A DNA stretch of 29,493 nucleotides, taken from positions 1 through 29,493 of IMG/VR virus record IMGVR_UViG_2537561932_000024. One strand, written 5' to 3'. Source of the stretch: a virus. Lineage: Duplodnaviria > Heunggongvirae > Uroviricota > Caudoviricetes. The position numbers were made by a program. This document shows positions 1-6,000 of the stretch, one piece after another. The stretch's first letter is position 1, and each line of letters starts with the position of its first letter.

Positions 1-3000
1 ATGCTCACCGTTAAGCAGATTGAAGCAGCAAAGCCGAAAGAAAAACCATACCGCCTTCTCGATGGTAATGGCCTGTACCTTTATGTCCCTGTATCCGGGA
101 AAAAGGTATGGCAGCTTCGCTACAAGATTGACGGTAAGGAGAAAATCCTGACCGTCGGAAAATATCCGCTTATGACTTTGCAAGAGGCAAGGGATAAAGC
201 ATGGACTGCGAGGAAAGACATCTCGGTTGGCATCGATCCGGTAAAGGCGAAAAAGGCTTCGTCTAACAACAATTCCTTTAGTGCGATTTACAAGGAATGG
301 TACGAGCACAAGAAGCAAGTCTGGTCAGTAGGCTATGCAACTGAACTTGCCAAAATGTTTGATGACGACATTTTACCCATCATCGGCGGCCTTGAAATTC
401 AGGATATTGAGCCGATGCAACTGCTGGAAGTAATCCGCAGATTTGAAGATCGCGGTGCAATGGAGAGAGCCAACAAAGCCCGCAGAAGATGCGGCGAGGT
501 TTTCCGTTACGCTATTGTCACTGGTAGGGCTAAATATAACCCGGCACCTGACCTTGCTGACGCCATGAAGGGATACCGCAAGAAGAACTTCCCGTTTCTT
601 CCAGCAGACCATATCCCTGCATTTAACAAAGCACTGACAACATTTTCAGGAAGTATCGTATCGCTCATTGCGACCAAAGTTTTACGCTACACAGCCCTAA
701 GAACGAAAGAGCTTCGCTCCATGCAATGGAAGAACGTCGATTTTGAAAACAGGATTATCACCATCGACGCCAGTGTAATGAAGGGACGCAAAATTCATGT
801 GGTTCCTATGTCAGACCAGGTAGTTGAACTTCTCACTACGCTAAGCTCAATCACCAAACCAGTATCAGAGTTTGTTTTTGCCGGGCGCAACGATAAGAAG
901 AAGCCAATTTGCGAGAACGCTGTACTGCTTGTGATCAAACAAATCGGCTATGAAGGTCTGGAAAGCGGTCACGGATTCAGGCATGAATTCAGCACGATTA
1001 TGAACGAGCACGAATGGCCTGCTGATGCTATTGAAGTGCAACTGGCACATGCCAACGGCGGATCTGTGCGCGGGATTTACAACCATGCTCAGTATCTCGA
1101 TAAGCGCAGAGAAATGATGCAGTGGTGGGCGGATTGGCTTGATGAAAAGGGGGAGTGATCCCCCCCACCAGAAACTTCCTGAGGATCATTACAGAAATCA
1201 CCACAGCATAGACAGGTTGGTTGAGCATTATCAGCGTTCAGACATTGACGGGACCTGCATTTTCATCAATGGCAAGGAATTTAACATGCCATGGAGCAGC
1301 CAAGTTAAGAATGTTGATATAGAGAGATTTCTCATCCATGGTGAACACCATCATACACTAAATCAGTAAGTTGGCAGCATCACCTTCATCACAATCTATT
1401 GATATTACAAAAAATGTGCATTTAAATTTTTATGGATAAGAACTATCTTATTGTGTTAAAATGATGAATCGCAAATGTATATGATATTTTTTTGGAATGC
1501 AAAATGAATTGGAAAAGGATAAACTCAATATCATTTTTAAGAGTGTTTTCAATATTATCAATAGTAATATATCATCTATCTCGCGCCTCAATAGATGCCG
1601 GATTCACTCCATCCATGTCGCATGAAATGGATATACTATCAATGCTTGGAGTTTCGTTTTTCATTATAATTTCAGGTGCATCATTAAATGTAAGCATGAA
1701 AAAGAACAGATCTACGCTTGATTTTTTCAAAAAAAGAATTAAATCTATATATATACCATTCTGGACTGCATATATAATAGTATCAATATTACTGTATCTG
1801 TCACGTGGAAGGATTTCTTTAGGAACTGATGTATACAAACTCCTCTTAACGTTTTCAGGGATGGACGGATGGCTTGGGTGGAGAACGCAAACATATTACT
1901 TGATTGGAGAGTGGTTTACAGGATTTATTTTAATATTGTACTTATTCGCTCCGTTGATATTTATTGGAGTAACAAAAAACAAATGGATTATGCTGTCCTT
2001 ATCTTTTGTTGTGAGCTTTTTTTCTTACAATTTTAATGATGATCTACGGAATTATATAGATATATTAAATCCAGTATCAATGTGGAATCCAGGAACTCGA
2101 TTATTTGAATTTGTTTTTGGATTTATAATTTATGATTATATATTAGGTGATAAAAAAACAAGAATATCATTATTTATGATATCATTATTTATTTGTATAG
2201 CTTATATCCTATCACCAAAAATAATAATAAACACTTATGTTTTTGTTCCTTTTTTCATTGCCATGTTTTGTTTTATTTCTATTGTTTATGAGTCAATAAT
2301 AACTTCAGATTCAGTAAACAAAAAAAATAGAATATGCATCAGGATTTTCATTTTTTGTATTCTTGTTTCATCATATAATTATATATGAAGCATATGATTA
2401 TGGGATAATAAATTACAAAACAGATTTCCAATTCTATTTTGGATTCATTTCAATTATTGTTTTGTGTGTTTTGCTTTCAAAGCCAGCGATGTTAATATCA
2501 TCTCGATTTAAATAAAAACATCAATTATATTTATATGAGTATGGCAATGTGTTTATTGAATAAAAAAATAAACACATTGCATATTTATCTAATTTTATTT
2601 TAATTAATGTACAAGTACAGTGATGGTTACTTCCTTTGATTCATTTACTGATACTACCCTCCCTACGGCTTTACGATAATCTATAAATGATGGTTCTGAT
2701 ATGTACACCCCGCTTATGCCACCATTAGAATCTCTCTGTGGTATAAGATACTCGCCTGGATTTCCGCCGATGACATTAACAGGAACGCGACCACAAAAGG
2801 CTAAGCGGTCAACTTTCTTCCTCTCCTCTTCTGAGGATGCTATCCATTGTTTGTATTCAGCACTCTCCATGTCTGGCTCATTATTTCTGGCCCACTCCTG
2901 CTCTGAATTCCACGATACAAGTTCGACTTCATAGCTTCGGAAGTATTCAGCATAAACTGACTCTGCCTCTTCCTGTGACATCCCTGACCGAATCATAGCC

Positions 3001-6000
3001 GAGACCATAGAATATTCAGGTTTCACGGGTTTTTGTTTTCTGAGTTTCTTTTCCCATTCTGCCCATTCTTGCGATGGGTATTCTGGGCGCTCGCTTTGTA
3101 GCCATGTGTCACCGCCAACAAGACATGGGTTGGTACTTTTTACCATGAAGCTAACTGCACTGTCATATCTGTCAGTGATATTCCCGTCCGCGTCAATTCC
3201 GCATATATCGCCTGGCTTAATGTCTCCACAGCCTTCTGATTTGTAGAAATATTCAGCGTAATCAGCTCCGGAAGAATTAACTGTGCCAGCGCAGTTTATG
3301 CTCCTGTCCGTTGCTGATGACTTTCCTACGAACATAACAGCGTCTGATGCGTTCGCACCTCCTGAGGCTTGTTGCCGTATGACGACCCCAGCTGCTCCAT
3401 TGGGACCAAACTGTGCGGCGATTTCGTTCACCCCCTTTCGGTTTGTTTGTGTGATGCTACCGGCAGGGTCAATGATAAGTACGTTGGTTTCCTCTCCAAC
3501 ACCATCAACCTGTGACGCCAGCACAAATGCCGCAGCGTTGGGGGTTAGAATTTTGATACCGGACTGATCGTGGTCTGAGAAGAACCCATATGATGTAGCA
3601 CCCCATGAGCGATATGAATATGTTGAACCAGGCCAAACATCATGTGCTTTGCCAAACTTACCTACAGCCTGGTATGCGCTATCAACTATCTCATCAGGAT
3701 TAAATGCATTGTTGTTGATAGCTTTATAAACCTGACTATCAGAACCTGTTCCGTCTTTATATAGGTTAAGCATCACCTCCATACCAACTGCAGACGTTGC
3801 AGCTGCATCTTCAGGAACTGTTACAACAGTATTATTCCCCCATACACGATATACAGGAGAGATATAAAGTGTTCCTGATGGAGTGCTCTGAGTTCCTGAC
3901 GTTTTTTCATACCATCCATCAACGGTGATGCTTGACGAATTAAACCCCCTAATAAGACCAAACCATGTTTTCGAAGATCCTATAACCACCGCGGTCATAT
4001 TTATCCTGACCTTAGCCGGATCAATGGTAATACTAGATGCTCCTGTTGTGCTAAAAATAGCTCCAGTTAGCGTGTACAATGGCGGTAATGCAGTATTTTC
4101 AAAATATGTAGCAGCAGTATCTGTACTGCCGTATTGGGCCAGCGATTGACCGGTTCCGGCGCCTAGAATGCCGGTAAAATGCTCAGCATCACGAGTCGCA
4201 GCCACAGCCGTTAAAACACATGCATCTTCAAAAACACCAAATGGTTGTTTTTGATGCTTTATTCCTCCATATCGGAACTCATAACCATCAGAAAAACTTC
4301 TATCAGATCTGTTATATGAACCAGGTATTAGCCCTGGAATTAGGAAATCAGCATTTTTCTCAATGATGTAATGCCCATCTGATATCAGCCTCGTCATATC
4401 AGCAGAAGATGCTGCTTCAATGCCTTCTTTTACTGGCAGCCAAAATCCTGATGGCTCTTCATCGCTGGTTATGGTGTGCGGTATGGTTGCCGTATATCTA
4501 TAAACGGTTGCGCTACCAAGATGCAATACAACATCGCATGGGTTATTTATTGTTACTCCTGGTTTGAAATATCCAATTAAATTATATCCAGGAAGTTTAC
4601 TGTATTTATCCCAAAGATTTAATAAGTTTATATCAAGGTAGGAAAACTTTGATGATGGATCATACTTCAGCACATTAGGAAAATAGAACTGCTTAGCACC
4701 ATATGCATCATATACAGCCATGGAATGGCCTTGCACAGTTACGAATTTGGCAATCTGTCCGTTATATACCGGATAACCAGCAGCGTTAATGATGATTGGT
4801 TGAGAAACAGGAACATGAGAACCATCTTCGTTTTCTACATAAACCTGAATCTGGTTTTCAGGATTTACCGGGTCAGTGTCAATTTTACCGATATAAATTT
4901 TGCCATTGGCTACGGCTTTAAAAGAACGCGCCATAGTGAAGAGTTGCGAAGGCATGCTTACTACAACATTGGCTGTAATGTCTGTCATTTAATTTGCTCC
5001 AGATACAAGGAATCGCCGAAGCATGGCTACGGTGAATTTTTGGCATAAAAAAACCCAGCCGAAGCTGGGTCGTTGCGTTGGTTATCTGTCAGTAGTTATG
5101 TACTGAAGGAGGTAATTCTTTATTCTTAAGTCTCATCCATGCGGAAAGATTCGTTGGTCCGTCTGGCTCATTAATATCAACATCTCGTGTATGGTTGATT
5201 AAAACATCTCTCGCCATATCGATAATACGGGAGAACTCATAACCGCAGTCATGACATCTGCCGGAATAGTTCGATTGAATTTGTTTTAGCGCCGGATACA
5301 GTTCGCGGAATAATGCCTGTGAGCGGTTGGCATAATCCCATAACCATACAAGGCTGTTTGCTTCTTTTGCAGAAAGCTCGTCGGTTTTCTTCTCTTGTTT
5401 GCCGATGAACTCGCCTTCAAGCACTACCCTGTGGATGTACTCTACGGCCAGCGGGATTTGTTCAATTGAAAGTTCATCAATACTGTCAATACCAAAACGC
5501 TGATGAACCATATTGTATGCATCGTCATAGCGAAGTCCTTTCTTTCCTACCAGCATGTTTACTGCATCGCGTAGCGGTGTTCTTTCCTCAACAGTGGTTT
5601 TCTTTCCTTTTACATACTCGCCATGTTTGCGAATTGAAGGCAGAACTTCTGCTGTTACCCACTTGCGGAATTTGTGCGGGACTGAACCTTTATTGACAGC
5701 ATCGCGGCAGCGCAGAACCAATGTATACATACCTGATTCGCTAACAATGCTTAGATTCTGCTCACCACCAAGGGTGTAACTTAAAGTTACTCCCTTTTCA
5801 TCGTCATCAAGTGCAGTAAGCGCCTTGCGTGAGTTAGTCAGAGTTAAAGCATCACAAACATCTTTTGCCACAAACCACGGCTCACCGCACTTGTTGATGA
5901 CGCGGATTTCACTGTCGCCGAATTTGAAGATGGTGAAATCGTTTTGTGCCTTTGCTATACTTTTCATGTCAATATTTCCCGATCAGATTTGTTGATACCG

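Follow-up and report, generated by a model that had tools for sequence, protein, structure and literature searches.

Tailspikes determine the host range of phages and are in use as glycan-specific reagents and antibacterials. The tailspikes of P22 (gp9), Sf6 (gp14), and HK620 (gp9) are O-antigen endoglycosidases, and we know of no cleaved C-terminal chaperone in any of the three. CUS-3, a P22-like prophage of Escherichia coli K1, joins a P22 head-binding domain to a foreign depolymerase, an endosialidase, and to a C-terminal chaperone of the Ser-Lys Peptidase_S74 type. The pre-neck appendage protein gp12 of the Bacillus phage phi29 (MEROPS G2, PF11962, PDB 3GQH) is the reference for another kind of auto-chaperone; D692 and E695 reportedly have a catalytic role in this protein, which is also said to depend on ATP. 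The form of gp12 found in the mature virion, gp12*, ends at residue 691 (PMC6542822). Here we describe the tailspike gene of a P22-like prophage contained in a window of 29,493 nucleotides, the whole stretch of DNA analyzed (IMG/VR virus record IMGVR_UViG_2537561932_000024). We consider it likely that this gene, in a prophage at the argW site, encodes a mosaic tailspike with a body directed at the O148 antigen and a G2-like chaperone that removes itself.

The gene is an intact ATG-to-stop open reading frame (ORF), with MTDITANVV at the protein start (Table 1). As the sequence-only reading of this DNA had proposed, its first ~110 residues constitute the head-binding domain of P22, Sf6, and HK620: PF09008 (Head_binding) matched residues 1–112 over profile positions 1–112 of 113 (E = 8.8e-66; 219.7 bits, against a gathering cut-off of 24), the domain is near-identical to that of Sf6 over residues 1–110, and that of CUS-3 is 97% identical. 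The tailspike also shares with P22, Sf6, and HK620 its genome position beside immI and att and its presumed role in O-antigen-specific destruction of the receptor. PDB chains of Sf6 gp14, P22 gp9, and the HK620-type spike aligned to residues 1–113/130 only (E = 1e-44 to 3e-63), and in a single-sequence PDB search the solved tailspikes of these phages matched nothing beyond residue ~130. The remainder had thus been correctly described as unlike their enzymatic domains. In the AlphaFold2 model, a helix (residues 117–130) and strands (residues 136–185) follow the head-binding domain, with a predicted local distance difference test score (pLDDT) of 78–86 across residues ~133–182.

The body has a single solved relative, PDB 24qj_A, named 'Tailspike depolymerase', which was matched over residues 268–421 by phmmer (E = 1.1e-11) and over ~190 residues, including the TVDGWY block, by the family profile (E = 3.5e-22). 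The relationship is a distant one, and the C-terminal half of 24qj (chain residues ~316–478 of a solved chain of 486 residues) does not align to the body. The tail fibre of Klebsiella phage RSU-F4K5, which has no Pfam domain, is related to 24qj (E = 7e-89) and was matched by none of the searches with the C-terminal module described below; the best match of 24qj in the INPHARED collection was 50% identical. Residues ~113–575 matched no Pfam or NCBIfam family, even at E ≤ 10, as was also true of the C-terminus, and no annotated PHROG; phrog_34132 alone was recovered, a full-length, self-type family listed as of unknown function. No Pfam beta-helix or glycosidase match and no catalytic motif were detectable in the body. 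Judged from these comparisons, the body appears new relative to P22, Sf6, and HK620, yet it belongs to a family with one solved structure. The novelty claimed for it in the sequence-only reading therefore holds with respect to those three phages and has to be narrowed by 24qj, the only solved relative found.

Different segments of the tailspike have different nearest relatives, as seen in a per-segment identity table. Twelve homologues of the body were recovered. Seven of the twelve carry the P22 head-binding domain and five carry PF18668 (Tail_spike_N) instead; the PF18668 adaptor is joined to the same body and chaperone in P0022–P0025 and P0029 and at positions 6001–8430 of L004. Proteins P0026–28 are 96–100% identical to the tailspike through residue 215 (97–100% in residues 113–215) and only 40–52% identical in residues 216–500, whereas P0022, with its foreign adaptor, is 96–100% identical from residue 216 to the end except in residues 501–575 (77%), and P0024/25 are 96–99% identical in residues 501–575 only. 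Given these distinct relatives, the tailspike is a patchwork of exchangeable modules, of which at least five have been exchanged independently of one another. The stem shows conservation with fibre proteins that share the C-terminal module. One homologue of the PF18668 type lies on a contig of ~50 kb, where it adjoins a tape-measure protein and an NlpC/P60 tail protein, neighbors that indicate a siphovirus. With body and chaperone present behind both types of adaptor, the receptor-binding cassette evidently passes between the tails of podoviruses and siphoviruses. Among 5,426 complete E. coli genomes, the full gene occurs in three (503440 and 503829 at 100% and TW10573 at 99% identity) and the head-binding portion alone, at ~95% nucleotide identity, in more than 1,100; in strain EC26 the shared part comprises residues 1–246 only.

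The tailspike is identical (100%) to WP_001716759.1 of E. coli 503440 and 503829, whose RefSeq name, 'phage head-binding domain-containing protein', covers the N-terminal domain only. Both strains are CS6 enterotoxigenic E. coli (ETEC) from India of serotype O148:H28 and lineage L8 (PMC6446980 supplement). The ETEC strain B7A, likewise O148:H28, harbors at the same argW site a 794-residue allele that is 78% identical overall. Identity of this allele is 97–99% in residues 1–186 and 80–91% in residues 216–500, and within the C-terminal module it is 62% in residues 576–630, 38% in residues 631–723, and 51% in residues 724–794. Because B7A keeps the body despite its diverged chaperone, the receptor is likely to be the O148 O-antigen, which is probably both bound and cleaved by the body. 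Retention of the body with replacement of the C-terminal module in two O148:H28 lineages would place specificity in residues ~216–500 and mark the C-terminus as generic and interchangeable, as expected of a folding module.

A tailspike built as described might nevertheless address a receptor other than O148, such as a capsule, another surface glycan, or an acetylated variant, or its body might only bind or might act as an esterase or lyase. We regard this as unlikely, although it survives better than the other alternatives. It would accommodate the lack of a detectable catalytic motif or Pfam glycosidase domain in the body and the fact that the sole solved relative, 24qj, is known by name only, and the adjoining acyltransferase of serotype-converting type hints that modification of the receptor is important. 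On the other hand, every typed carrier is O148:H28, the tailspikes of P22, Sf6, and HK620 are generally known to act on O-antigen, and the name carried by 24qj is that of a depolymerase.

With regard to the C-terminus, the segments GADYAEYF and PGDICGID singled out in the sequence-only reading were located at residues 574–581 and 592–599, respectively, and fall in conserved columns. Residues D50, Y51, A52, E53, Y54, G67, D68, and G71 (C-terminal fragment numbering) are invariant or nearly so in 102–145 distant homologues. No variation was seen in D-Y-A-E-Y in either set (102 and 145 members), nor in R, G, K, G, G, T, K, P, V-G, and D or, within the terminal block, in R, D-R, G, P, N, and G. 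A chance origin of the motif was rejected: D[YF]AEYF is expected ~1e-5 times per protein of such size, a rough estimate from typical residue frequencies, and such an origin is not credible because the motif sits at the N-terminal edge of the conserved module. A second YAEYF, at residues 679–683 (window 2940–2954, minus strand), echoes the boundary motif from within the helical insert. Given that it is not conserved in homologues, it is probably coincidental and was rejected as a second cleavage site.

The boundary motif coincides with the processing site of phi29 gp12. The phi29 protein reads ...GGNTWS691-D692FAEYFESL... and the window protein ...VNSSGA575-D576YAEYFYKS..., so that D-[FY]-A-E-Y-F directly follows the scissile bond or its equivalent in both, and the D-x-x-E spacing after this bond is the same (A575/D576-Y-A-E579-Y-F versus S/D-F-A-E-Y-F). 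This Asp is preceded by Ala in the window protein and by Ser in gp12.

The module belongs to a large family. A search with residues 527–794 recovered 19 proteins with 33–58% identity, none of which had a precomputed Pfam domain, and the module profile matched 6,621 clusters at E ≤ 1e-3, including 1,435 at E ≤ 1e-30, among 1.84 billion representatives. In nearly all of the best 150 of the 6,621 matches the module ended at the protein end or 1–2 residues from it, and its N-terminal partners were diverse fibres and spikes, including those with a T7 tail-fibre N-domain, BppL_N, or a pectate-lyase-like domain; the module thus shares with gp12 an extreme C-terminal position on a phage spike or fibre. 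The distance from the Asp to V-G-G-D was fixed at 47–48 residues in 171 family members, and the terminal block was fixed at 67–71 residues, whereas the linker after V-G-G-D ranged from 11 to 113 residues (median of 45; 102 in the window protein, from VGGD to VDRxAF). The corresponding counts for gp12 itself are 46 residues from the motif to VLGE, ~57 for the linker, and ~60 for the terminal block, all within or near the family ranges; the helical insert of the window module, at ~95 residues, is longer than the phi29 linker. Between alleles, no segment differs more than this insert (32–45% identity), and its length is nonetheless conserved.

Modeled alone with AlphaFold2, residues 527–794 attained a mean pLDDT of 82.7, with most 10-residue blocks from residue ~576 exceeding 85, and the model comprises a beta-structured N-terminal block, long helices in the insert, and a small terminal beta barrel. 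Weak matches to SH3_15 and BPL_C were seen in the C-terminal block of relatives. Matches in BFVD included a family member from a Vibrio phage (E = 3.5e-20) and entries named 'Preneck appendage protein' (E of ~0.01–0.02). An hhalign comparison of the 175-sequence module family with phi29 and nine Bacillus G2 homologues paired the DYAEYF and DFAEYF segments, a colinear arrangement that is no proof standing alone. With the insert excised, the terminal blocks were also colinear, pairing R..VDRIAF.GQVPVNV..G.YI.P with R.EW.VVGLLGQ..VR.D....G..I, and the C-terminal block (residues 724–794) was colinear with 'REWHVVGLLGQIAVRID...' of phi29 gp12. As a single query, the C-terminus retrieved nothing but noise from the PDB, and Bdellovibrio fibre repeats returned by a PDB profile search were rejected as irrelevant to the tailspike, having been matched through the N-termini of other members.

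In our own reading, the module probably represents a remote, separately evolving branch of gp12-type auto-chaperones that is G2-like by motif, position, and block architecture, and its fold is probably G2-like as well. As far as sequence profiles can tell, it is outside the Pfam family as now modeled, set apart by its long helical insert. The Peptidase_G2-like character attributed to the C-terminus by the sequence-only reading therefore stands as a resemblance in motif, position, and block order, but not as membership in PF11962. The phages that carry the window-type module are podoviruses and siphoviruses of Gram-negative hosts, unlike phi29, and cleavage is here a prediction. More tentatively, and as a proposal that we find plausible but stop short of favoring, the DYAEY module may define a very large family of self-cleaving, G2-like chaperones borne by the fibres and spikes of phages with Gram-negative hosts, with over 6,600 clusters (50% identity level) outside Pfam and NCBIfam, fixed N- and C-terminal blocks, a variable helical spacer, and a fold shared with capsid decoration proteins.

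By homology with P22, Sf6, and HK620, residues 1–112 would dock the trimer onto the tail, with residues 113–215 serving as a neck and small proximal domain and residues 501–575 as a stem. The three chains would associate through the C-terminal module, by way of its terminal barrels and helical bundle, and the module would template trimerization and folding of the stem and body. D576 and E579 would then catalyze cleavage of the A575/D576 bond, as the motif, architecture, and fold similarity suggest, and the module would remove itself. The predicted products are a mature subunit of ~61.5 kDa and a fragment of ~24.9 kDa (residues 576–794), the latter missing from virions. The body, residues 216–500, would bind and probably cleave host O-antigen, probably that of O148.

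Several observations weigh against the proposal of an O148-directed mosaic tailspike with a G2-like chaperone. PF11962 did not match the window protein at its gathering threshold or even at E ≤ 10, and among relatives it gave only weak matches, in 4 of 20 and in 1 of 102 (best E = 9e-4). The hhalign comparison reached a probability of only ~15% in local mode (P of ~0.002) and did worse in global mode, so that similarity to gp12 is below Pfam and hhalign significance, and Foldseek found nothing in the PDB at E ≤ 1e-3. AlphaFold2 prediction, suggested in the sequence-only reading as a check on residues 110–794, was successful for the C-terminal part modeled alone, but residues 113–794, with a 13-sequence alignment, gave a mean pLDDT of 46.5, with most of the body below 50. 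The serotype link comprises three typed genomes, two with identical genes and B7A with a diverged allele. Finally, the spike was absent from every isolated phage in the INPHARED collection.

It is improbable, in our estimation, that the C-terminal 219 residues instead stay in place as a permanent distal tip or trimerization knob, a decoration-protein-like beta domain with a helical bundle that might even bind the receptor. The invariant D-Y-A-E-Y at the module boundary coincides with the scissile site and catalytic pair of phi29, the module recurs in thousands of fibres whose N-terminal and central regions are unrelated, and it is swapped between alleles that share body and serotype, as befits a generic folding module rather than a specificity determinant. 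The variability of the insert at constant length also suits a relaxed coiled-coil spacer.

The prophage is P22-like (Lederbergvirus-type) and is integrated at tRNA-Arg (argW) in O148:H28 ETEC. Over its first 13 kb, the window differs from the E. coli 503440 chromosome by only two substitutions and a single-base indel (99.98% identity). The gene order in 503440 is tRNA-Arg, intS, acyltransferase, tailspike, ant, arc, mnt, and ejection proteins, with the tailspike and acyltransferase genes convergent. Pfam matches to the window ORFs likewise reveal a P22-type layout (integrase, Acyl_transf_3, Bro-N/P22_AR_C antirepressor, Arc, Mnt, Inj_translocase, and Phage_stabilise). As in P22-type genomes, the tailspike gene lies beside the immI region (ant, arc, and mnt) and the attachment site, and a gp10-like gene follows the ejection proteins in this neighborhood beside tRNA-Arg.

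That the gene is a relic of a defective prophage and yields no functional spike seems to us quite improbable. The adjoining acyltransferase gene does carry a homopolymer frameshift in the window, and the lack of an isolated phage with the gene would fit such a relic. However, the reading frame is intact and recurs at 100% identity in two more genomes and at 99% in a third, its sequence cluster has 90 members, the P22-type late region in the window is complete, and functional residues are conserved across distant homologues. A Peptidase_S74 chaperone of the endosialidase type, as in CUS-3 or K1F, has a precedent in the domain order and 97% identical head-binding domain of CUS-3 but can for practical purposes be dismissed, given that the C-terminal module matched neither PF13884 nor any other Pfam family at E ≤ 10, that no S74 structure was among the PDB sequence or fold matches, and that the conserved motif is D-x-x-E and not Ser-Lys.

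Table 1 Features of the tailspike gene and its upstream junction, with positions in the window.
Feature	Residues	Window position	Strand	Remarks
Whole tailspike gene		2604..4988	-	794 codons + stop; predicted precursor of 86.3 kDa
P22-type head-binding (tail-attachment) domain	1–112	4653..4988	-	Pfam PF09008 and PDB matches
Neck helix and proximal small beta domain	113–215	4344..4652	-	Separately exchanged module (mosaic table, AlphaFold2)
Receptor-binding (presumed depolymerase) body	216–500	3489..4343	-	Region of homology to 24qj at residues 268–421
Stem to predicted cleavage site	501–575	3264..3488	-	Holds one fibre-like repeat
DYAEYF, predicted autoproteolytic motif	576–581	3246..3263	-	Predicted scissile bond A575/D576; D576 and E579 predicted catalytic pair
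Chaperone N-terminal block, motif to VGGD-W	576–630	3099..3263	-	Fixed length; AlphaFold2 pLDDT 87–96
Helical insert (hairpin or coiled-coil)	631–723	2820..3098	-	AlphaFold2 helices, pLDDT 91–96
C-terminal beta-barrel block, ending VTITVLVH	724–794	2607..2819	-	pLDDT 85–97
Terminator-like hairpin between ant and tailspike start		5052..5071	-	Pattern scan: 8-bp stem, 5 GC pairs, then T run

Each type of module in this tailspike has a precedent, whether the P22 adaptor, the depolymerase-type body, or the C-terminal self-cleaving chaperone. What is new is the combination of a P22-type tailspike with a G2-like chaperone, the origin of this chaperone in a very large family with a variable helical spacer and without Pfam or NCBIfam coverage, and a candidate O148 specificity; our literature search found no relevant work on O148 tailspikes, on 24QJ, or on DYAEY or Peptidase_G2 tailspikes. 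If the body is O148-specific, it would serve as a tool for targeting L8, a major ETEC lineage of serotype O148:H28 to which the challenge strain B7A belongs. Thousands of fibre proteins carry the module without a Pfam or NCBIfam label, which constitutes an annotation gap, and the predicted cleavage point before DYAEY may guide truncation, and the processing to be expected, when such depolymerases are expressed. The locus also illustrates recombination module by module, with adaptors of both P22 and PF18668 types and a chaperone swapped independently of the body.

The strong terminator-like hairpin upstream of the tailspike start is reminiscent of the P22 immI–gene 9 junction. Between intS and the tailspike gene, the Acyl_transf_3 gene (window 1492–2388, plus strand) has a low G+C content (~28%) and occupies the place of a serotype-converting O-antigen acyltransferase. 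The homopolymer at 2320–2327 is A8 in the window and A7 in strain 503440; as a result, the acyltransferase is frameshifted, with its ORF ending at 2388 rather than at ~2515 and the Pfam match reaching profile position 263 of 326. The A8 tract could reflect slippage, phase variation, or a sequencing error. The corresponding argW prophage of B7A has no acyltransferase gene at all. Two ORFs around the immI region had no Pfam match, one of 149 residues (7068–7517, plus strand) and one of 621 residues (7793–9658, minus strand); the latter, a 'hypothetical protein' in RefSeq, lies at the position of a variable ejection protein. The virion structural operon contains a homing-endonuclease-like ORF of 177 residues with NUMOD4 and HNH_3 (window 12862–13395, minus strand), and this patch has a G+C content of 0.39–0.40, compared with ~0.50 nearby.

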